Origin: a virus
Taxonomy: Duplodnaviria > Heunggongvirae > Uroviricota > Caudoviricetes
DNA length: 64,000 nt
Reading direction: 5' to 3' (one strand)
IMG/VR virus record: IMGVR_UViG_2737471993_000002
In this document: in pieces, positions 10,414-26,275 of the stretch
How positions within the stretch are numbered: position 1 is the first letter of the stretch
Layout of the letters: each line of letters opens with the position of its first letter
Made by a program: the position numbers and the translations under genes
The notes under the pieces: generated by a model
Databases searched by the model: none
Seen by the model: only the letters and a program-made list of their open reading frames with translations
What the model was told of the DNA's origin: nothing

Positions 10414-10797
10414 ATGCTGAACGAGAAACGTTCTATACAAACTATTCGCGATTGCACGAGTATTATCGAGACTCATGTGCTGAATCAGCACAAGCTTGAA
10501 GTACGTAAGCTCAATAATGACGCTATTGAACCGGAAGACTCACGCTTCATCGTTACCTTCAAAGACGATGTTGAGCGCGCTGGTGCAAGCGTGAAGCCAT
10601 TAGCTGAAGCAATTTACCTGAATGGTCGTGTTCGTTTTGTAGTCAAGCCAGCTAAACAGTACCCTGAGCTGTCTCGTTTTATCGAGGCTTTTTCGGAGGT
10701 TATTGAACATTCTATTCGCCGCTTCTTACGCAATCATGGTAGCATTGTCAGCACGGTTAAGGCTGATGATTCTGCTACAAAATGGCTCCTACACTAG
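10414..10797 (+). CDS. Hypothetical protein
   Basis: ATG with AAGGTGGA Shine-Dalgarno; 127 aa; no recognisable motif. Confidence 0.5.
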   Translation: MLNEKRSIQTIRDCTSIIETHVLNQHKLEVRKLNNDAIEPEDSRFIVTFKDDVERAGASVKPLAEAIYLNGRVRFVVKPAKQYPELSRFIEAFSEVIEHSIRRFLRNHGSIVSTVKADDSATKWLLH

Positions 10798-11534
10798 ATA
10801 GCGCATATTCAAAAGATCTAAGCGAGTTTCCTCATAAAGGGGAGACTCGTGTTGTTCGTTTTGGCTTTCTTATCAATGAAGCCTCCCTCTATAAAATCTC
10901 AGAAATTGAAATCATTGAACCAGAAGATGACATTTGCCTGTATGTCTCTATGGAACGTGTAGGTGCGCGCAACCAAGGCGACCTGAGCGAATTCATCTTA
11001 GATCGAGCGGATGAAGATGCCCCTGAAGAAGAGATTATCAAAGAGGTGCTCCAGTCCGGGCTTCTGGACGAAAACAAAAATACGATCGCTGGTAGGATAG
11101 CTCTGCGTGAATATAGTTTTGTTGAAGACGGTAATGAGATCGAATGTTACCAGGTAGCTGGTGTCGAAACTGTCAGAGAGCGTCGTCAGCGAGGATTGTG
11201 TCACCGTACCTATCTCTTTCTTCTTCATTGGTATGAGCATTTAGTCTGCGACGATACACAAACCATTCCTGGTGCTAAGATCTGGGCAGGGCCTCTCATG
11301 CGAACCGGCGATGTGCGTATATACAATGCCAAAACAGAAACGTTCGAAGATGTGTTAGGTGAGTACGGGATGGGGAAAGAAACCGGATTTTTGCCGTGGA
11401 ACAGAGGATTGTTGCTTGATGCAGAGTTAAGCTCTTGGCTCCCAAACAAAGTGCAAGTTAACGTTCAGAAATTTATCGTACTTATCATCTCCCGCAAAAC
11501 AAGAACTCCAGTAGGTTTATACCTAAAAGATTAA
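10782..11534 (+). CDS. Hypothetical protein
   Basis: 250-aa ORF overlapping upstream gene end; followed by a clear terminator. Confidence 0.5.
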   Translation: MAPTLDSAYSKDLSEFPHKGETRVVRFGFLINEASLYKISEIEIIEPEDDICLYVSMERVGARNQGDLSEFILDRADEDAPEEEIIKEVLQSGLLDENKNTIAGRIALREYSFVEDGNEIECYQVAGVETVRERRQRGLCHRTYLFLLHWYEHLVCDDTQTIPGAKIWAGPLMRTGDVRIYNAKTETFEDVLGEYGMGKETGFLPWNRGLLLDAELSSWLPNKVQVNVQKFIVLIISRKTRTPVGLYLKD

Positions 11535-11710: not shown

Positions 11711-12379
11711 ATGACCAAGATCTTTGTGGTTGGCGGCACAAAGGGCGGGCCTGGCAAATCCACCGTTGCCCAGCAAATTGCCGTTTGCCTGAAAGTCAAA
11801 AAGAAGAAGAAGGTTTATATTACCGATATAGATATTCAGCGCACGACAACGAGCTGGTGTGAAGACCGTCGACAGAACGAAGACCTTGAGCTGATTCCTT
11901 TTGCATACGTTCAGGATGACATCATTAAGCACCTAAAATCGCTTCAGGGTAGAGCTGAGTTTGTAGTGGTAGATGCTGGTGGCTTCGACTCCGAAATTCA
12001 GCGACAAGCGATGCTGATGGCTGACGTTATCATTATCCCGCTGCGTCCTAAGCGTCGTGATTTGAAATCTTTACGTGACATCGATCCTATTATCGACAAT
12101 GTTCGCAATGTAAACGATAAAGTGAAGGTCCGCGCGGTCATGAACCAGTGCCCGGCTTTGCCATCACAAGTGTCTCGCATTCTGGCGGCTAAAGAGATTG
12201 TTGAGACGTTTGGCATCGAGTCTGCGCCAGTCAATCTATATAACCGCAACGTCTATGATGATGCGGAAGAGTCTGGTCGTTCTATCTTTGAAATGACCGG
12301 TAGCGAGCGCGACAAAAAGGCGGAAGCCGAGTTTGAAGAATTTGTAGATTATCTGTTGAGTCTGGAGGAAGAAGAATAA
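11711..12379 (+). CDS. parA: ParA-like partition ATPase (small ParA/ParF type)
   Basis: Deviant Walker A GGTKGGPGKST near N-terminus; 222 aa; followed by overlapping small basic gene (TAATG). Confidence 0.7.
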   Translation: MTKIFVVGGTKGGPGKSTVAQQIAVCLKVKKKKKVYITDIDIQRTTTSWCEDRRQNEDLELIPFAYVQDDIIKHLKSLQGRAEFVVVDAGGFDSEIQRQAMLMADVIIIPLRPKRRDLKSLRDIDPIIDNVRNVNDKVKVRAVMNQCPALPSQVSRILAAKEIVETFGIESAPVNLYNRNVYDDAEESGRSIFEMTGSERDKKAEAEFEEFVDYLLSLEEEE

Positions 12380-12738
12380 TGTCCATGAAAATGGGTGACC
12401 TAGCAAAGCGCAAAGAGCCTGATGCACCGGCTAAGAACACAACTCCTTTGCGCCAACCAGTCAGACCACAGGGACGCCCGACTCGTGGCAAAGAGAAAAT
12501 TAAAAGCCGCACAATGTCACTGGAAGACGAATACTTCGAACTGCTGGAGATGATGAAGTTCATCCCTCGCTTCGAGAAGTTCACTCGTTCTGACGTGATT
12601 CGAGCAGCCATTTTCCATCTGGCAGAGAAGTCACCGCAGGAAATCGAGGACATCGTGAAGCTTAACGAGGCGATCACAGCTGCCGACGTTACGATGCGTA
12701 CCGATGAAATTAAACGAGAGTTGATGAAGAAAGGTTGA
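12379..12738 (+). CDS. Small basic DNA-binding partner of ParA (ParG/ParB-like, ribbon-helix-helix candidate)
   Basis: 119 aa, Lys/Arg-rich disordered N-terminus, C-terminal SDVIRAAIFHLAE-type RHH-like segment; translationally coupled to the ParA-like gene. Confidence 0.4.
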   Translation: MSMKMGDLAKRKEPDAPAKNTTPLRQPVRPQGRPTRGKEKIKSRTMSLEDEYFELLEMMKFIPRFEKFTRSDVIRAAIFHLAEKSPQEIEDIVKLNEAITAADVTMRTDEIKRELMKKG

Positions 12739-12789
12739 TTATATTGGGCGTTTGTTACGCCCAATATATGAATTAAAGGATTGATACTA

Positions 12790-14484
12790 ATGGAATCGAT
12801 AGAATCATTTCTAAAAAATTTTCTAGTTTCAGATCATCGGGTTGCCGTCATAAAAGGAGATTGGGGCGTTGGTAAAACTCATTATTGGAATAGTTTTTAT
12901 ACTAAGCATTCTGAAGGATTAGATTTTAATGCATATTCGTATGTTTCTTTGTTTGGGGTTAACTCTATTGGTGATATTAAAAAAGCTCTTTATCATTGTG
13001 CCACACCAATTAATGAAAAGAAATATAAAGAACTAATTTTATCTGAAACGGATCGAACTATGATTCGTTATAGAAATGGGTTTTTGGGATGGTTGAAATA
13101 CAACTCCTTGTCAAAATTTTTAATACATTTCGGAAAGAACGATTTTTTTGGGTTCAAAACAGATAACCTGCTGTCATCTCTTGAGTATAAATTTGTTAAT
13201 AATTATTTGGTTTGTATTGATGATGTTGAAAGAAAAGGTAATTCGCTAGAAGTTAAAGAAATTATGGGGGTAATTGATGAATTGGCAAGAAGAAAAGGCT
13301 GCAAAGTTGTTCTAATTTTAAATGAAGATAATTTACATGATGAAACTGCAAAAAAACAGTTTTTAGAGTACAGAGAAAAAGTAATTGATGTCGAAATAAA
13401 ATATGATCCTACGCCTGAGAAGAACTTACGTAAAGTTTTTTATGAAACTGATTCTGATTTTCTTTTGTTAAAAGTCTTAGCAAATGACTTAGGCATTAAA
13501 AATATCCGTATATTAAATAAAATAAAAACATCTCTGGTTAATCTTAGGAATGAGCTAAGCTTGGCAGAGGATAAGGTTAGAGAAAGTTTTATCAATAGAT
13601 TGGTTCTGTTTTCAGTGGTTTACTATTCTGGTGTTCCAGGTGTTGATTATGCCTTGTTTAAAGAATCAATTAAAAACATACATGTATTTGATTACATGTT
13701 AGATGATAAAAAGGATGATTCTGTATATTCATTTATTAATAGTCTTGATATTATTTATGAACGAGCGGAAATTGCTTTCGATGATGACATAGATTTTTAT
13801 CTCAAGAATGGTTATCTTTCTACTGAAAGCAATATTCGAGGTATAATAGAAGAAAAAAATAAACAATATAAAGAACACAAGGCTTTATGTGAGGTTAACA
13901 ATGTTTGGGATATTTTTAGTGACTCATTCAAGGACAATGAATCTGAGTTTATTTCTAAGATAAAATGTGTAATTAACGACAATCTTTCACACATACCTGT
14001 TGCTCACTTCATAGGCTTGATTGATATCTTAAATAGATTGGAGATTGATTGTGATAGTTATATAGAGGCATATGCAGATGCCTTTGTTAGCCAAGATGAT
14101 GCTTATACTGCTTTTCGGAATTTGTATGTAGAGATATTTGGTAACGAAAAGTTAGGTCTGCTAATTCAAAAAAAATTGATGGATAAGAAGCCTGAAGAGA
14201 CTAATTTAGAGAATGTTTTATACAAAATAATTGAAGGCAAATTTAATCATAGTGACATAGCATATCTTAACAGTTTCTCTGAAGATGATTATTTAAAGTG
14301 GATATTATCCCGCAATCAGGATGCTTTGGATTTAGTGAGAAAGGGGTTGCTCAGATTCAAAAGTATGCAAGAACTAACAGAAGAACAGCAAAAAATCACG
14401 AATAAAGCAATAGGTGCATTAACGAAACTGGCCTCTAGATCAAGTCTTAACAAACTACGTGTGAGCAGATTGCTTAATAATTAA
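12790..14484 (+). CDS. KAP-family P-loop NTPase (accessory gene, candidate defence function)
   Basis: ATG at 12790 with AAAGGA 9 nt upstream (track start 12781 is TTG). Walker A GDWGVGKTHYW (GxWGxGKT hallmark of KAP NTPases) at aa ~24-34, Walker B-like LVCIDDVE. Very AT-rich relative to neighbours. Confidence 0.55.
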   Translation: MESIESFLKNFLVSDHRVAVIKGDWGVGKTHYWNSFYTKHSEGLDFNAYSYVSLFGVNSIGDIKKALYHCATPINEKKYKELILSETDRTMIRYRNGFLGWLKYNSLSKFLIHFGKNDFFGFKTDNLLSSLEYKFVNNYLVCIDDVERKGNSLEVKEIMGVIDELARRKGCKVVLILNEDNLHDETAKKQFLEYREKVIDVEIKYDPTPEKNLRKVFYETDSDFLLLKVLANDLGIKNIRILNKIKTSLVNLRNELSLAEDKVRESFINRLVLFSVVYYSGVPGVDYALFKESIKNIHVFDYMLDDKKDDSVYSFINSLDIIYERAEIAFDDDIDFYLKNGYLSTESNIRGIIEEKNKQYKEHKALCEVNNVWDIFSDSFKDNESEFISKIKCVINDNLSHIPVAHFIGLIDILNRLEIDCDSYIEAYADAFVSQDDAYTAFRNLYVEIFGNEKLGLLIQKKLMDKKPEETNLENVLYKIIEGKFNHSDIAYLNSFSEDDYLKWILSRNQDALDLVRKGLLRFKSMQELTEEQQKITNKAIGALTKLASRSSLNKLRVSRLLNN

Positions 14485-14494
14485 GTATTCATGA

Positions 14495-14545
14495 CCTGTT
14501 TCTGTATATAAATAATAAGTAACTTATTAAATATACGGAAGCAGG
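14495..14545. repeat. Copy A of duplicated long hairpin module (CCTGYTTCTGTATAT...ATATACGGAAGCAGG)
   Basis: 15-bp inverted arms around an AT-rich loop, directly after stop of the KAP NTPase gene; near-identical element at 62321-62385; downstream ~40 nt later a shared CCA(C/-)NAGAAC..CTCCCTTCC block. Confidence 0.6.
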
Positions 14546-14662
14546 TCTTTCAAAAGATACCCACCAGAACAACTCCCTTCCGTTTCCACTTCCAAAAACT
14601 GCCACCAATCGCTATCATCAGCTCATTGTGATAAGTAAGTAACTACCTACCAGGTGAGCCAC

Positions 14663-15403
14663 ATGAGCCAAATCTTTTTCGACACCATCGACAACGACCA
14701 GTACGACTTCATGACAGAGTGGAATACCGCTGTTATGGATAAGTGGGTTGCTGAAAACATTGGTTTGTCGCGCTGCAAAGACGAGGCTGAACTCTTCGAT
14801 ACGAAGTGGTTTGATTACCGCGACATGCATCCTCTTATGGCCACCTGTCTGTTTACGGAGGCATACAAACGTCAGTACTCAAATATCATGCTGACGCACG
14901 GTCGCGAACACTTTGAAACAGCTCCGTTCACCACCGGGTTAAAACGCCTGCCTTATCAGGAGTTGTCGACTGCCAATAAAACGTCGCTATGGAAAGCACG
15001 CCAGTTTGCTGACCGCTATTGCTGCTCATACGACTACTTTATCTCCACCGTTCTTTCCGCAGCTGCACGACGTCTGTGGGACAAGCTGCCTCGCCCACAG
15101 CATTTGTGGCAGCCAGAACTGATTGAGATATTTGAAGAGAAATTAGCCAGACGCGCAACAACCCGTCTGGATGACTCTCTGGTTAGCTTTAAGCATATAG
15201 GAGACATGCAGTTCAACCCGATCCAGGAAAGCTATTTTGAGTGGATTCTGGAGCGTTTACGCACCATCCCCCGCAGCAAGCGCATACGCGCAATTTTCTC
15301 CGCTATCTGGCTAATGGAAATCGTTCCAGAGCGCCTTATTTCCGCCCACTTTCCAGAAGAACTGGAAGAAGCACGGCGGTTTATTGATCCCCTATCTAAT
15401 TAA
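14663..15403 (+). CDS. Hypothetical protein
   Basis: ATG at 14663 with AGGTGA upstream (track start 14654 is GTG); 246 aa; immediately upstream of helicase gene. Confidence 0.5.
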   Translation: MSQIFFDTIDNDQYDFMTEWNTAVMDKWVAENIGLSRCKDEAELFDTKWFDYRDMHPLMATCLFTEAYKRQYSNIMLTHGREHFETAPFTTGLKRLPYQELSTANKTSLWKARQFADRYCCSYDYFISTVLSAAARRLWDKLPRPQHLWQPELIEIFEEKLARRATTRLDDSLVSFKHIGDMQFNPIQESYFEWILERLRTIPRSKRIRAIFSAIWLMEIVPERLISAHFPEELEEARRFIDPLSN

Positions 15404-15411
15404 CTAATACT

Positions 15412-15432
15412 AGAAAACAATTTGTTTAAAAA
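15412..15432. promoter_or_regulatory. AAACAATTTGTTTAAA palindrome upstream of helicase gene
   Basis: AGAAAACAATTTGTTTAAAAAAC; member of the recurring AAACAAnTTGTTT motif family. Confidence 0.4.
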
Positions 15433-15446
15433 ACAAAGGAAAGCAC

Positions 15447-16787
15447 ATGACCGAACTTTGCCATACAGGACGCGGGCTGTCCGAAGAGTTTGATGAAGAT
15501 TTCCAGAACAGACTGACGGCATATTTTTGTCGTGATCACGAGTTTCTTACTCGTGCGGGAGATCTGGTTGTGCCTAGCCAATTTGCCAATGCGGCCAATG
15601 CCATATTGGTTAATATGGTTTCGGGCTATTACCGTATGTACAAGAGCGCGCCCTCTTCATCTGCAATTCTGGATATGCTTAAGCGTGCGAAACGCGATAA
15701 GACTATCCGTGAGGAACTATTCGCCGATGTTGTTGCTGCGTTTAAGCGCATCCTTGCAGAAAAATTGTCCGATACCTCGTACATGGTTGACCAGGTATCA
15801 ACCTTCGCAAAAAGCGTAGCGTTTGATGATGCTCTGATTAAGGCTGCTGAACTGAAAGAGAAAGGCGACTTTCAGGGGGCGATGGCAATCATGGCCAAGG
15901 TTCAGCAGATTGGATCGAACGAAGCGACCGGAATCTATGACTACTACACCTCCGCAAGTGAGCGATTGAAAGCGCGTGAATATGAGGCTTCAGAGGAGTA
16001 TGTACCAAACAGTATTACAACAGGACTCCCTCTTCTCGATAGGTTGCTGTACCAAAAAGGCTGGGCAAAGCGCGAAATGGTGCTTTTCATGGGGTTCGCT
16101 AAATCCGGTAAATCGACCGCAATGGGTGAGTTTTCCATAAACGCAACGCTTGCTGGCTACAATGTTCTGTATCTCTCGCTGGAGGTTCACACCAACATTT
16201 TGTCCGACCGCTTTGATGCAAGATTGTCGGAGACGGAAATGTCCAAGCTGGTGGAACGGCGCGATGAAGTTCATCGTAAGTTGGCAGAGTTGGGAGCCAC
16301 TAAGGGGATTGGTAGTTTGTGGGTTGTTGAGCGTCCGTCAGGAAGTATGTCACCGGCAGATCTGGACCGTATGCTTAACAGCATGAAAGCCAATGGCATG
16401 GTGCCTGACATGCTTGTTGTCGACTACGCAGATTTGATGCGTGCCAGTTATGACCTTCGTGATGATCGCGCCAACATTCGTAGTATCTACACCGATTTAC
16501 GTGCTCTTTATGACAAACACAACGTTGCTGGTATCACAGCATCGCAAACAAACCGTGAAGGTGGCGCGTCAGAAGTTGCCACAATGATGCACGCTGCCGA
16601 CAACATCGAAAAAGTACGTATTGCTGACCTGGTAATAACGATCAACAAAACCGAAGAAGAAGAAGCGAAAGGAGAGGCTCGTCTCTACTTTGCTGGTTCG
16701 CGTAACCAGCAGGGAGGGATCAGCATTCGCGTTAAACAAAACCTCGAACAAATGCGCTTCATTGAGCGAATCTTAGACGTTACCTAA
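15447..16787 (+). CDS. Replicative DNA helicase (DnaB-like)
   Basis: Walker A GFAKSGKST, DnaB-type C-terminal RecA-fold motifs (LYLSLEV, VVDYADLM, ITASQTNRE); 446 aa. Confidence 0.8.
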   Translation: MTELCHTGRGLSEEFDEDFQNRLTAYFCRDHEFLTRAGDLVVPSQFANAANAILVNMVSGYYRMYKSAPSSSAILDMLKRAKRDKTIREELFADVVAAFKRILAEKLSDTSYMVDQVSTFAKSVAFDDALIKAAELKEKGDFQGAMAIMAKVQQIGSNEATGIYDYYTSASERLKAREYEASEEYVPNSITTGLPLLDRLLYQKGWAKREMVLFMGFAKSGKSTAMGEFSINATLAGYNVLYLSLEVHTNILSDRFDARLSETEMSKLVERRDEVHRKLAELGATKGIGSLWVVERPSGSMSPADLDRMLNSMKANGMVPDMLVVDYADLMRASYDLRDDRANIRSIYTDLRALYDKHNVAGITASQTNREGGASEVATMMHAADNIEKVRIADLVITINKTEEEEAKGEARLYFAGSRNQQGGISIRVKQNLEQMRFIERILDVT

Positions 16788-16868
16788 AAAATAAGCGTGG
16801 AGAACACCTCCACGCTTGATTCATTGGTGAAACAACTTTTCTTTTGCCAAACCACAAAAGAAAAACAC

Positions 16869-18050
16869 ATGAGCCTTTATGTTATATCAACATTTAGGTT
16901 GGTCACAATATTGCCTGTTAAAAGTGGAATTATCGTGAGCGAGCTGAAAGAGCTAATTGCCGAATTAGATTTTGAACAATGGTTGGATACTGAAGGTATC
17001 GTTTATCGACGTGGAGGCGTGAGTGCTCGCGGTCGTGAAGTGAATATCAAAGAGTGTCCGGTATGCGGCAGCTCCAACTGGAAGGTATATTTCAATCTGA
17101 CCAGTGGCGTCGGTAAATGCTTCGCTGGTGATCATCCCGAAGAGATTCAGTTCAATAAGCTGGTCTTCCTCAAGCACTACAGCGGCAAATCACGACGACA
17201 GTTCGAGGAATATGTGCAGAACGCCCTTCTTTCCCAGGGGTGGGCACCAAAGAAAGAAGAGCTAGTGCTTGCAAGCACAGTCGAGTTAGAGGGGCCAGTT
17301 GCACTCCCTCGTCATTACGAGCTTCCTATAGATGGCCGTCTTCCAGACTATCTGGTTGAACGAAACATATCACCTGAAATGGCAAAGTATTTTGACCTAC
17401 GATACTGCGTCGAAGGCAAGCACGCTTATGTAGATCCGTATACAGATCAGGTAAAAGGGCAGATATTCGATATGCGAATACTGATACCGGTTTACGATCT
17501 GGATGGGGTAATGAAGACATTTCAGGGACGAGACATTACCGGTACAGCAGAACGCCGCTACCTCTTTCCTATGCAGCTTCCAGCTTCAGGTAAGTTTCTC
17601 TACAACGGCCATAATGCAGTCGGCAAACAGACTGTAGTTGTCTGTGAGGGGGCGTTCGATGTTATGGGGGTTAAACGAGCTATTTTTGACGAAGAAACAT
17701 TACGTGATTACGTGGAACCAATAGGAACGTTCGGGATGCATCTATCTGGTAACACCACTCAGGATGCAGAAGATCAGTTAGGCGCGTTCCTGACGCTCAA
17801 GGCGCGTGGGTTACGTAATGTGATCATGATGTGGGATAGTGAAAAGCAAGCTATACGCAACACTATGGCCGCAGCCAGGCGACTGAGCAGTATTGGTCTT
17901 AATGTGAAAATTGCATGTTTGGGCGAGGAAGGACTCGACCCCGGCGATGCGACCCCGGGGCAGATTATCAAAGCCTACTATTGCGCAAAACCTTACTCAC
18001 GACAGCTTGAACTCTTAAGCAAGGTGAAAGGCATTGCAGCACTAGTTTGA
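16869..18050 (+). CDS. DNA primase (zinc-binding + TOPRIM)
   Basis: ATG at 16869 in the conserved AAAGAAAAACACATG initiation context (track start 16797 lies inside an intergenic hairpin). CPVCGSS..C zinc motif and TOPRIM-like VVCEGAFDVM. Confidence 0.65.
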   Translation: MSLYVISTFRLVTILPVKSGIIVSELKELIAELDFEQWLDTEGIVYRRGGVSARGREVNIKECPVCGSSNWKVYFNLTSGVGKCFAGDHPEEIQFNKLVFLKHYSGKSRRQFEEYVQNALLSQGWAPKKEELVLASTVELEGPVALPRHYELPIDGRLPDYLVERNISPEMAKYFDLRYCVEGKHAYVDPYTDQVKGQIFDMRILIPVYDLDGVMKTFQGRDITGTAERRYLFPMQLPASGKFLYNGHNAVGKQTVVVCEGAFDVMGVKRAIFDEETLRDYVEPIGTFGMHLSGNTTQDAEDQLGAFLTLKARGLRNVIMMWDSEKQAIRNTMAAARRLSSIGLNVKIACLGEEGLDPGDATPGQIIKAYYCAKPYSRQLELLSKVKGIAALV

Positions 18051-19187
18051 ACCAGTATTAGTCACATACACATTGACCGAAAATGATTTAACTTCTGTAT
18101 TGAAGTTGTCAGTCATTACCGCGAGGTAGGCATTCTTGGTATCTCTGAATTGCTTCAGGATGATTTGAACGTTATCGGTGCAAACAAACGAGGTAGCCAG
18201 ATTGCCTCCTTTCTCTGAAAAATCCTTCAGGAAGGTGCAGTCAACTTTGCCATCATTAGCGGTGAAGGTAGCATCATCACCCTGCCAGGTAAATGTAGCG
18301 TTAACGCCCTTATCAATGGATTTAGCAATAAGTCGCTGGGTGGCGGATTTTGTTTTGGCTTTGGAAGCCGGCGCTCGATATTTGCCGCTTTCTTTCAGTT
18401 CTGCAATGTAATCGCAGCCTCTTTTTTCTCCTTTATCGCAAGCAGTCTGATAAAGGTCGGCTGCTTTTTTATAGTCCTTTTTTACACCTTCCCCATTCTC
18501 ATACATAATGCCAAGATTGGTTATGGCGTCGGCGTTTCCAAGTTCCGCTGCCTTTTTATACCACTTAACTGCTTCTGCATCATTGCGTTTAACGCCTAAC
18601 CCATCATCGTATAGTATTCCTAATCCTATCATAGCTTCTGAACTGCCTTGGTCTGCCGCCTTTTTGTAATAAGTAAAAGCCTTTTTATAATTCTTTTTAA
18701 CGCCTTTACCATATTGGTAATACGCCCCAAGAACTGAAGTTGCTTTAACATACCCGGCATCAGAGGCTAGTTTGAAGTATTTAATGGCGAGTGCATGATC
18801 TACTTTACCAAGCATCCCCTTTTGATAAATAGCACCAAGATTGTTGTAGGCTCTACCTTCACGAGCATCCCCCGCAAGTTTGTAGTACTCAACAGCTTTA
18901 TTTAGGTCTTTATCTACACCCTCGCCAAATGTGTACATAACTCCAAGTGCATAATATGCTACTTTATCTCCCTTTTCTGCAGCTAGATCAATCCACTTCT
19001 TGGCCTCAACTACATCCTTATCAAAACCATTGACACCATCAAAATAATTTGTACCTAACTCACTTTGTGCTGCGGTATCCCCTGCGGTAGCGGCTTCTAT
19101 CAGCGTTTGTTTATTGTCTGCGTTAACGAATCCAGAGTTAAAAAGCAAAGTTAATGCCAGCAACGATGAAGATTTTATGTATTTCAT
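18042..19187 (-). CDS. Secreted Sel1-repeat (SLR/TPR-like) protein
   Basis: Start at internal Met (MKYIKSSSLLALTLLFNSGFVNA signal peptide); at least 8 tandem ~36-aa Sel1-type repeats (A..YY.KAA..G...A...LG.MY..G.GV.KD); ~110-aa non-repeat C-terminal domain. Confidence 0.7.
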   Translation of the reverse strand: MKYIKSSSLLALTLLFNSGFVNADNKQTLIEAATAGDTAAQSELGTNYFDGVNGFDKDVVEAKKWIDLAAEKGDKVAYYALGVMYTFGEGVDKDLNKAVEYYKLAGDAREGRAYNNLGAIYQKGMLGKVDHALAIKYFKLASDAGYVKATSVLGAYYQYGKGVKKNYKKAFTYYKKAADQGSSEAMIGLGILYDDGLGVKRNDAEAVKWYKKAAELGNADAITNLGIMYENGEGVKKDYKKAADLYQTACDKGEKRGCDYIAELKESGKYRAPASKAKTKSATQRLIAKSIDKGVNATFTWQGDDATFTANDGKVDCTFLKDFSEKGGNLATSFVCTDNVQIILKQFRDTKNAYLAVMTDNFNTEVKSFSVNVYVTNTGSN

Positions 19188-19419
19188 GTTTTTTTTCTGT
19201 TGATATAGGATGAACAGTTTAGACGCGGCAAGCGTCAAGTGTGCGAAAAAGGGTACTTAAATTTAGTTAATATGTCAGCTTTGTTGATTTAGTTTATGGT
19301 CGGTAAAGTTACTGGGAAACTAATAACCATAAGAAATAGTACGCCATTTAATTATTGTGGCACTGCTCGTGTTTTGATTAACTAATACCTGCGATAAATA
19401 TAAATAAAGGGAAGCCAAC

Positions 19420-24940: not shown

Positions 24941-26275
24941 TCATGCCAAATTATCCAGATTTCTTTTCTTTTTTTCAATTATATTTCTCGCGCCAGAAAA
25001 AATTTTACTCAAAATAATTGGTTTGCTTGCTCTATTATTAAGATGTAACAACGCGCTATAAAATACATAGTTATCTATTTTACTATTTAAGGTATTCCCA
25101 AGCTTCCCGTTATATGTGCTATTAATAGTATTAAAATATACATGTTCAGGACCTATATTACAAATACCCCTATCAACTCGCTTTAAATAATGTTTAACTA
25201 AAGAAATAGCATCTTCCTTATCATTAATAACATAAAGTCCTGAGCGTTTACCTAGCTTGCTGTCCGAGAATAATTTATAACCAATAAGTTCATTTAACGT
25301 ATTATCCACTTTTGTCAACTCTTTGTTGGCAATCTCCAGATAATACTCAATCTCTTTCTCCATATTACTTATTAAAGAGTTAAATTCTGCTCGTAACAAA
25401 TCACCACCAGGTGATTTATAACTCCATAAAATTGAATTGGTAATACGTACTACGTCAGATATTTCTGGTTTCTCTGAATAGTTTTTGTATCTAGTGCAAA
25501 TAATGCTGTGCTTTATATATTCTCTAACTAATGATCGATAATCCCTTTCGAAAAGGTTTTTGACATCTAGTCTTCCATTGCTTGTTGTTATTAGGGTGGT
25601 GTTTAAAACTGGGTCGCCTTCAAAAAAATTATATTTATTTAGTAATCGTTTTAGCTTGTGTGAATTATGTGATGTTTCGCCATAATAATTTATCCCAAAA
25701 ATAGCAATTATTAGCATAACATCAGGAGTGATGAAATGTCGTAATTGCTCGGCATAAACTTTTTTCTCTTCGATTTTCGAAGATGGAGAGTAAAAACCTT
25801 TGTCTATATATTCTAATATTGAAACAATATTACTAACATAACGTATAAAAACTTGATTCATTACAACGGAATCATAAACCTGATGCAAATAATCTACTCT
25901 CAAGTTGTTTTTTATTTTTTCCCCTGTACTAGATGATAACTCTTCTTTTACCTGCCCAAGTAGCTTTTCGTGGTGCTCCAGCAATGTTTTAAACCATTGT
26001 TCAAATGATGATTTTCTTGCCTCAGTTAATGAATCTGATGTTATCTGGACAGCTTTCATAGCTGCTTTCGCACTTTTCTTTGCTTCATAAGCGTTCCATG
26101 CTGTAGCACAAAAAGCTGCCGCCGTGATGCAACTGGTAAAAATAGAAATCCTATCTGCAACATTCAAGCTCCAGAACCAATCAGACGATGAAATCAAAAC
26201 CACAGATATTACGGGAACAATGAAAATCAAAACAGGCATGTATGTACTCGCTCTAATAGTTATTAGTCGAGGCAA
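24941..26275 (-). CDS. AT-rich membrane-anchored protein of unknown function (candidate accessory/defence gene)
   Basis: 444 aa (alternative start at Met13); two N-terminal TM helices then large soluble domain; AT content far above the flanks; next to tRNA cluster and recombinase. Confidence 0.5.
   Translation of the reverse strand: MPRLITIRASTYMPVLIFIVPVISVVLISSSDWFWSLNVADRISIFTSCITAAAFCATAWNAYEAKKSAKAAMKAVQITSDSLTEARKSSFEQWFKTLLEHHEKLLGQVKEELSSSTGEKIKNNLRVDYLHQVYDSVVMNQVFIRYVSNIVSILEYIDKGFYSPSSKIEEKKVYAEQLRHFITPDVMLIIAIFGINYYGETSHNSHKLKRLLNKYNFFEGDPVLNTTLITTSNGRLDVKNLFERDYRSLVREYIKHSIICTRYKNYSEKPEISDVVRITNSILWSYKSPGGDLLRAEFNSLISNMEKEIEYYLEIANKELTKVDNTLNELIGYKLFSDSKLGKRSGLYVINDKEDAISLVKHYLKRVDRGICNIGPEHVYFNTINSTYNGKLGNTLNSKIDNYVFYSALLHLNNRASKPIILSKIFSGARNIIEKKKRNLDNLA

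Follow-up and report, generated by a model that had tools for sequence, protein, structure and literature searches.

We analysed a 64,000-nt stretch of DNA from a virus of the Caudoviricetes (IMG/VR record IMGVR_UViG_2737471993_000002; hereafter the window), which is an SSU5/pHCM2-like phage-plasmid of Escherichia coli, as judged from its 100% identity to the E. coli plasmid AP024133.2, its 98-99% identity to 'Escherichia phage CMS-2020a' and its ~82% identity to Salmonella phage SSU5 across the shared flanks. Between its partition and replication genes lies a compositionally foreign, accessory gene for a soluble KAP-family P-loop nucleoside triphosphatase (NTPase). We consider it probable that this gene is exchangeable cargo of a defence hotspot, and that its product would act as a stand-alone NTPase switch against phages or other mobile genetic elements. 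The reading draws on a gene that is foreign, accessory, selected, self-contained and repeatedly captured in a slot otherwise holding defence families, and on the fact that KAP NTPases with the same layout of an NTPase followed by an uncharacterised C-terminal region protect against phages. A hedged sequence-only reading had proposed a foreign, accessory KAP NTPase as a defence candidate that possibly stands alone, and every element of it that could be checked held.

Position and composition of the KAP gene

The KAP gene is a single intact, ATG-started open reading frame (ORF) of 564 aa, a trivial departure from the 565 aa given before, while an in-frame TTG upstream at 12781 would give 567 aa. 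The identical coding sequence (CDS) in sister plasmids is listed in RefSeq as WP_000443723.1, 'P-loop NTPase fold protein'. The local order is endolysin/spanins, two small ORFs, parA, the parB-like gene, the KAP gene, orf249, a DnaB-like helicase gene and a primase gene; the KAP gene thus lies, as had been supposed, between the parA/parB-like locus (11711-12738) and the block of orf249, DnaB-like helicase and primase (14654-18050). No Pfam domain was found in orf249. The gene and its two neighbours are:

12790..14484, + strand: KAP gene, encoding a 564-aa soluble KAP-family P-loop NTPase (ORF; Pfam, PADLOC and PHROG profiles; AlphaFold2 model; ratio of nonsynonymous to synonymous substitution rates, dN/dS)

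12379..12738, + strand: parB-like gene, 119 aa, conserved left flank of the slot (protein 90-100% identical, 80 loci)

14654..15403, + strand: orf249, conserved right-flank gene before the DnaB-like helicase and primase genes (86-100% identity, 80 loci)

The gene is strongly foreign in composition. Its GC content is 0.306 (0.251 at third codon positions, GC3), compared with GC 0.47-0.49 and GC3 0.46-0.57 in the five genes flanking it. Among all 1,695-nt segments of the 64-kb sequence (mean 0.454, sd 0.035), the KAP gene is the minimum (z = -4.2), and just 0.25% of the segments have an equally low GC, which bears out an AT-richness that had been judged by eye.

The slot as a hotspot of exchangeable cargo

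Both ends of the foreign segment were located by blastn comparison with alleles that hold other cargo or none. Homology breaks on the left at 12739-12743, directly after the parB-like stop codon (at 12802 against plasmid pMTY18780-3), and on the right at 14480-14495, at the KAP stop codon. Three features describe the module and its borders:

12739..14486, + strand: exchangeable cargo module consisting of leader hairpin, ribosome-binding site and KAP gene (blastn against other-cargo and empty alleles)

12740..12768, + strand: GC-rich stem-loop after the parB-like stop, cargo-borne (-17.9 kcal/mol, z = -5.9)

14493..14547, + strand: conserved 55-nt backbone hairpin, right border of every cargo (-28.7 kcal/mol, z = -9.1)

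The leader stem-loop is probably a terminator or attenuator of par read-through. Right after the parB-like stop, most types of cargo have a different hairpin (13 of 17 examples read). In the SSU5-type membrane-protein cargos (L003, L057, L060) the coding sequence begins at once and there is no leader hairpin; no leader stem was seen in L086, and the empty alleles lack one. The downstream hairpin, taken earlier for a conserved module accompanying the gene, is real but belongs to the backbone and not to the inserted gene, since it is present in relatives with an empty slot; the idea that it forms part of the cargo was rejected on this ground. It is kept in all cargo types as well, and is conserved from E. 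coli-type to Klebsiella-type elements. Because its stem relies on G-U pairs, it is strand-specific at the RNA level, and its much better folding on the + strand (-19.2 kcal/mol on the - strand) suggests an RNA-level element that precedes the replication operon, for example as a terminator or stabiliser; as no U-tract follows, it is not a canonical intrinsic terminator. We also rejected a site-specific cassette with att-like borders, for the cargo ends vary by type, most cargos have their own leader hairpin, and no att-like repeat was found at the slot borders. The empty-site remnant 'TCTGGCAGC...' is retained in some cargos and lost in others. Given these differing ends and the variably kept remnant, cargo replacement by homologous recombination in the conserved flanks would be the simplest reading.

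The slot was surveyed in 80 IMG/VR loci retrieved via the right-flank protein; anchoring both flanks gave 80 usable loci, namely 74 from IMG/VR, five reference records and the window. Five are empty, with an interval of ~190 nt, and in the others 14 or more types of cargo are found. The most frequent, at 25 loci, encodes a GIY-YIG protein that matches PD-T4-3 of PADLOC (1.3e-23), another a 398-aa protein that matches PD-T7-5 (4.5e-139), and several encode DUF2971 proteins matching the candidate system PDC-S31 (up to 3e-41). The slot of phage Cyrano contains a gene for a 267-aa DUF2971 protein, that of SSU5 three genes, one of them for DUF2971, that of pERB3f3 an opposite-strand gene for a 357-aa protein, and that of pMTY18780-3 two membrane-protein genes. 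Of the 74 IMG/VR loci, five have the KAP gene itself, and one more (L064) has a homolog with 44% identity. The site bears the marks of a defence hotspot: its position between core genes is fixed, its cargos exclude one another and include known defence families, and it also occurs empty. The company of PD-T4-3-like, PD-T7-5-like and PDC-S31 cargos in relatives agrees with the proposal that the KAP gene is a defence candidate, its own activity being putative.

PD-T4-3 and PD-T7-5 are reportedly families of single-gene anti-phage systems that Vassallo et al. found in 2022 by functional selection in E. coli. Defence hotspots of P2/P4 temperate phages and satellites, which Rousset et al. are said to have described in 2022, resemble the present site in having a fixed core-gene slot, mutually exclusive foreign and mostly single-gene defence cargos, and an empty state; the present site differs in belonging to an SSU5-like phage-plasmid, between the partition and replication modules. 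An independent DefenseFinder survey (10.1101/2025.09.12.675607) likewise recorded both PD-T4-3 and PD-T7-5 in E. coli and Shigella phage-plasmids of the SSU5 group. We found no description of the parB-rep slot as a hotspot in the literature searched, and the main text of a hotspot-catalogue preprint names neither SSU5 nor the slot.

Distribution, alleles and selection

Presence and absence across relatives identify the gene as accessory, as the sequence-only reading had anticipated. It occurs in 23 of 737 related PLSDB plasmids (~3%), including 22 of the 249 Escherichia/Shigella records among these (~9%), and in 28 of 5,426 complete E. coli genomes, where it is plasmid-borne every time; clean empty alleles occur, and the gene is not core. 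In Klebsiella SSU5-like elements a 40%-identical KAP homolog sits in exactly the same slot, and the homolog of the Salmonella-type element L064 does so too. The parA, parB-like, orf249 and DnaB-like genes of these elements are 82-93% identical to those of the window, and the KAP genes of all three have a GC of 0.30-0.31. Sequence comparison thus indicates that divergent KAP homologs are repeatedly captured in the same slot.

A second E. coli allele shares 76% aa identity with the window protein, and comparison of the two gives a dN/dS of 0.23, with values of 0.15 for the NTPase half and 0.24 for the C-terminal one. Identity falls along the protein: it is 90-96% over the N-terminal 150 aa, 84-92% over what remains of the NTPase half, and 52-62% beyond about residue 350. 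Nucleotide homology is gone past base 1624. Synonymous divergence (dS; window 12790-14484 against L097 1501-3207) rises from 0.36 in the NTPase half to 0.80 in the C-terminal half, and this doubling suggests a recombinant or swapped C-terminus, that is, mosaicism or faster turnover of the C-terminal half.

A 99%-identical variant, P0013, was found in 1,142 assembly blocks, always intact and always in this slot (L098-L100, 3001-4695), with Shigella sonnei and E. coli as named sources. A surveillance preprint reports no detectable defence system in pWPMR2-like S. sonnei phage-plasmids, which may be among the elements that carry the gene. Two copies are damaged and probably frameshifted: a 1,696-nt match with split annotation in NZ_CP053233.1 (31049-32744) and a 1,694-nt match without an annotated CDS in CP022461.1 (50764-52457). 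Sister plasmid NZ_CP041423.1 has an IS1A insertion inside a 6.5-kb region.

The gene has also been met by a CRISPR (clustered regularly interspaced short palindromic repeats) system of E. coli. Five E. coli chromosomes, O169:H41 among them, have in their ygcE-queE array a type I-E spacer that matches the gene at 32 of 32 positions, and the 5'-ATG protospacer adjacent motif (PAM) is permissive.

13484..13518, + strand: CRISPR protospacer (13487-13518) with 5'-ATG PAM (13484-13486) (spacer match; also L006 3002-3033)

In the spacer-bearing strain F6326-C1 (chromosome NZ_CP024263.1), the adjacently numbered plasmid NZ_CP024264.1 (E. coli O169:H41) is SSU5-like and without the KAP cargo.

Protein architecture and family

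Assignment to the KAP family, made at first from motifs, was backed by a profile: Pfam KAP_NTPase (PF07693) matches aa 12-254 on model positions 12-278 of 293 with 24.8 bits (cutoff 20; E = 1.6e-5), and homologs of the protein carry precomputed PF07693. Walker A is VIKGDWGVGKTHYW (aa 20-33) and Walker B is YLVCIDDVERK (aa 139-149); the motifs first read as GDWGVGKTHYW and the Walker B-like LVCIDDVE are both there, and their core residues are invariant in 34 homologs with identity down to 27%. The same set keeps an AYSYxSLFG strand, YREKxxD, NxR...K and a C-terminal LNxxR invariant. PHROG 4740, a phage family of unassigned function, matches end to end (E = 1.1e-164; aa 1-564 on model positions 3-626 of 627). 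The parts of the gene concerned are:

12856..12879, + strand: Walker A codons G23-D-W-G-V-G-K-T30 (G23, W25, G26, G28, K29 and T30 invariant in the 34 homologs)

13204..13233, + strand: Walker B codons Y139-L-V-C-I-D-D-V-E-R148 (Y139, C142, D144, D145, E147 and R148 invariant in the 34 homologs)

13558..14481, + strand: C-terminal all-helical half, aa 257-564, alpha-solenoid-like, no enzymatic fold (AlphaFold2 model)

The term KAP hallmark applies to the profile and the motifs, but not to the transmembrane insert typical of the class. In classic KAP NTPases (Aravind et al. 2004, Genome Biol 5:R30), transmembrane helices interrupt the P-loop domain after Walker A and before Walker B, whereas the window protein has at this site a variable, polar insert of low model confidence (aa 76-134) that is free of such helices. 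The highest 19-aa Kyte-Doolittle mean is 1.35 in the window protein and at most 1.6 across the 34 members, and the peak never lies in the insert. Hydropathy thus gave no transmembrane segment in any of them, and we therefore consider the family soluble; a membrane-anchored, Tmn-like KAP protein was rejected on the same evidence.

The AlphaFold2 model is confident (predicted local distance difference test, pLDDT, 83.5) and shows an alpha/beta NTPase with a helical lid up to about aa 256, followed by the helical half, whose repeats are not recognisable as TPR, WD40 or LRR. The NTPase is well conserved, the insert and aa 257-470 are poorly so, and conservation rises again over the last ~95 aa, where W504, N554 and R557 are among the re-conserved residues. 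In structure comparison the nearest matches of the NTPase fold are replication initiators (Orc1/Cdc6, DnaA) and transposition regulators (TnsC, MuB). A Foldseek search of the full model against PDB gave generic AAA+/STAND matches only (E ~1e-3, TM score 0.2-0.3), and the family profile found nothing among PDB sequences at E <= 1.

An exhaustive profile search returned 6,727 representatives at E <= 1e-3 and 1,650 (50%-identity clusters) at E <= 1e-30. Nearly all of the best 150 are 540-600 aa long, match end to end and have no extra domains. Family members are usually found on mobile elements. In nine distant homologs from unrelated chromosomal, prophage and integrative and conjugative element (ICE) contexts, the gene is solitary and has no conserved neighbour, and none was found in the phage-plasmid slots of three host genera either, in keeping with the suggestion that the protein may act alone. 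The Salmonella homolog lies within an ICE conjugation module, and those of Pragia, Vreelandella and Pseudomonas are one-gene islets amid housekeeping genes. That of Oleispira adjoins IS66 and helix-turn-helix genes; others are found in an islet with an integrase gene and a PIN-domain gene, in a Mu-like prophage, and in a lambdoid prophage next to the S24 repressor, a classic moron or exclusion position. In a Pseudomonadales metagenome-assembled genome (L093 10001-12613), a KAP homolog is directly followed by a DUF2971 gene in a two-gene islet amid metabolic genes, and this partner is of the same family (PDC-S31) as the slot cargo of other phage-plasmid relatives. Relatives over the N-terminal half of the protein are also encoded by temperate phages of Bacillus, Burkholderia and Campylobacter.

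Comparison with known systems

Tmn is a KAP-type transmembrane NTPase that forms a single-gene anti-phage system of E. coli plasmids; its NTPase motifs are needed for function, and it is reported to co-opt other resident systems (Wu et al., 10.1101/2022.08.21.504612). The window protein shares with Tmn a single-gene, plasmid-borne KAP-class P-loop NTPase with conserved NTPase motifs and no recognisable enzymatic effector, whereas the two transmembrane helices inserted in the P-loop domain of Tmn are missing from the window family, which has instead a C-terminal half of ~300 aa resembling an alpha-solenoid. PifA of the F plasmid, which excludes T7, is likewise a KAP-domain protein of an E. coli extrachromosomal element that protects against other phages, a role which the window protein would share; PifA is reported to be linked to membrane permeability lesions, whereas the window protein is predicted to be soluble. 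By published description, the same layout is found in the EF_KAP-type proteins, which are anti-phage, depend on Walker B and protect in a non-abortive manner (10.1101/2025.10.07.681051): a single gene encodes a KAP NTPase and then ~300 aa without a known domain, called in EF_KAP an uncharacterised C-terminal 'effector region'. EF_KAP differs in its two N-terminal transmembrane helices and its Firmicutes origin.

PDC-S49, a single-gene system, is among the 145 candidates obtained by 'guilt-by-embedding' (10.1101/2024.01.29.577857). Its hidden Markov model (HMM), applied without the coverage rules of PADLOC, matches the window protein at E = 2e-22 (aa 3-223 on model positions 8-214 of 624), a second PDC-S49 model does so at E = 1.4e-5 (positions 6-390 of 629), and all 34 sampled family members are matched (best 2e-29). 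Gene number and length (~620-position models) are alike as well; as the C-terminal half is left unaligned, we regard the window family as a sister of PDC-S49 rather than a clear member. STAND/Avs sensors combine an effector, a STAND NTPase and a repeat sensor, whereas the window protein has no N-terminal effector domain, because its Walker A starts at aa 23. Pfam nSTAND3 stays below threshold (16.3 bits against a cutoff of 27.2), and the structural likeness to NLRs and Avs4 does not extend beyond the generic core of the NTPase.

Pfam and PHROG families for the protein and its resemblance to a candidate defence system were already on record in databases, and a defence role of KAP NTPases is established in outline. 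What is new is, first, a soluble family of KAP-plus-solenoid proteins, distinct from Tmn, PifA and STAND systems by the searches made for them, and second, the mapping of the parB-rep slot as a defence hotspot of SSU5-like elements.

Proposed mechanism and alternative explanations

We consider it most likely that the KAP protein guards the lysogen, and hence the phage-plasmid, against other phages or competing mobile elements, by immunity or exclusion. The N-terminal KAP NTPase would be a nucleotide-dependent switch of the Orc1/Cdc6, TnsC or NLR type, and the C-terminal alpha-solenoid would bind a phage-derived protein or nucleoprotein cue, with its variable middle as a specificity surface and its conserved tail as a surface for output or oligomerisation. 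Through binding and hydrolysis of nucleoside triphosphate (NTP), the protein might then assemble into an oligomer and so block the replication of the phage. It contains neither a nuclease nor another enzymatic effector, and the block could therefore proceed by sequestering or remodelling a phage component, by consuming NTP, or by co-opting another resident system, as reported for Tmn.

Several observations weigh against a defence role. No recognisable effector domain was found in the KAP protein, and the output step is speculative for this reason. Among the PADLOC profiles, only the candidate PDC-S49 was matched, and that over the N-terminal third of the model, and PDC-S49 is itself just a candidate system; Tmn was matched neither by the window protein at E <= 1 nor by its 34 relatives at E <= 1e-3, PifA by none of them, and NCBIfam holds no model that matches the protein. 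Sharing a hotspot with defence genes does not prove the function of the KAP gene, and some slot cargos have no defence annotation, namely the 357-aa protein, a lipoprotein and the two-gene membrane cassettes. Several chromosomal homologs stand alone amid housekeeping genes and not in obvious defence islands. A promoter and terminator scan around the gene found no site above shuffled expectation, and so AT-rich a gene might be poorly expressed or silenced. The literature searched contains no published test of WP_000443723.1 or its family, and nothing on PDC-S49 or on SSU5 together with KAP.

Three other explanations were weighed, and each of them appears less likely to us than a stand-alone defence protein. 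The gene could encode a non-defence accessory NTPase of the phage-plasmid that modulates partition, replication initiation or the lysis-lysogeny decision, as its shared orientation with the parAB and helicase/primase genes on either side and the nearness of its fold to Orc1/Cdc6, DnaA, TnsC and MuB would suggest. We hold this for improbable: ~97% of related plasmids do without the gene, the empty alleles replicate and persist, homologs in chromosomes, ICEs and unrelated prophages have no par or rep partners, and a gene of foreign composition occupies a slot that otherwise holds PD-T4-3-like and PD-T7-5-like genes. That the gene is a silent passenger, acquired with its very low GC, possibly silenced by H-NS and of no current benefit in E. 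coli, in a slot that merely tolerates insertions, is slightly more doubtful still. The lack of a promoter above chance and the occasional, probably frameshifted copies (NZ_CP053233.1, CP022461.1) speak for such a passenger; the dN/dS of 0.23 across both halves, the invariant catalytic motifs, the 1,142 assembly blocks with P0013 intact in the slot and the repeated capture of divergent homologs there speak against it.

The chance that the protein serves counter-defence or acts as a weapon between elements, neutralising host defence when the phage-plasmid enters or excluding rival SSU5-like elements, seems to us as slight as that of a passenger. Phage and plasmid hotspots mix defence with anti-defence cargo, SSU5 elements carry the anti-retron Rad, and Tmn has been proposed to serve plasmid competition; the type I-E spacer against the KAP gene implies that E. 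coli treats the element as an invader, yet such a spacer shows exposure only. Known anti-defence proteins are mostly small, whereas this one is a conserved NTPase of 564 aa, and its family also forms lone chromosomal islets and resembles the defence candidate PDC-S49 but no anti-defence family. A stand-alone role in defence therefore remains the reading that we prefer.

Other variable sites of the element

Variation is not confined to the parB-rep slot. Upstream of parA, the window has two ORFs of 127 and 250 aa (10414-11534, + strand) with no Pfam or PADLOC match; Cyrano and many Shigella/E. coli relatives have there a toxin-antitoxin pair of the KacT/TacT acetyltransferase type (L002 491-1325; L098 805-1603). 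After the primase gene, the - strand at 18042-19238 encodes a Sel1-repeat protein (Pfam Sel1, 1.5e-53) with a signal-peptide-like N-terminus and a GC of ~0.39-0.42, and this position is probably another variable slot, since Cyrano and pERB3f3 have a different + strand gene there. A second AT-rich island (24941-26275, - strand; GC ~0.31) contains a 444-aa ORF that scores 21.4 bits against the cutoff of 22 for Pfam putAbiC, with no PADLOC match. The name putAbiC denotes a putative abortive-infection protein, and the island may be a second defence-type cargo site.

Significance

KAP NTPases came under suspicion of an immune role two decades ago; the few put to the test are PifA, Tmn and the EF_KAP type, and a mechanism is established for none. 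The present family is tractable, being soluble, encoded by a single gene and native to E. coli, with cargo and empty alleles on the same backbone and divergent versions for specificity swaps. The slot also supplies further candidates, namely two proteins of 357 aa and 351 aa, the two-gene membrane cassettes and the lipoprotein. We also entertain, as an unlikely possibility, that soluble KAP-plus-solenoid proteins form a mechanistically new class of single-protein immunity without an enzymatic effector, and that the parB-rep slot is an undescribed platform by which such single-gene defences pass between Escherichia, Shigella, Salmonella and Klebsiella. If so, this platform would include phage-plasmids that are common in epidemic Shigella sonnei and are scored as defence-free by current defence finders. 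The KAP gene is common in phage-plasmids of clinical E. coli and Shigella for which standard tools list no defence system, and could thereby affect both susceptibility to phage therapy and the competition between mobile elements in these lineages.

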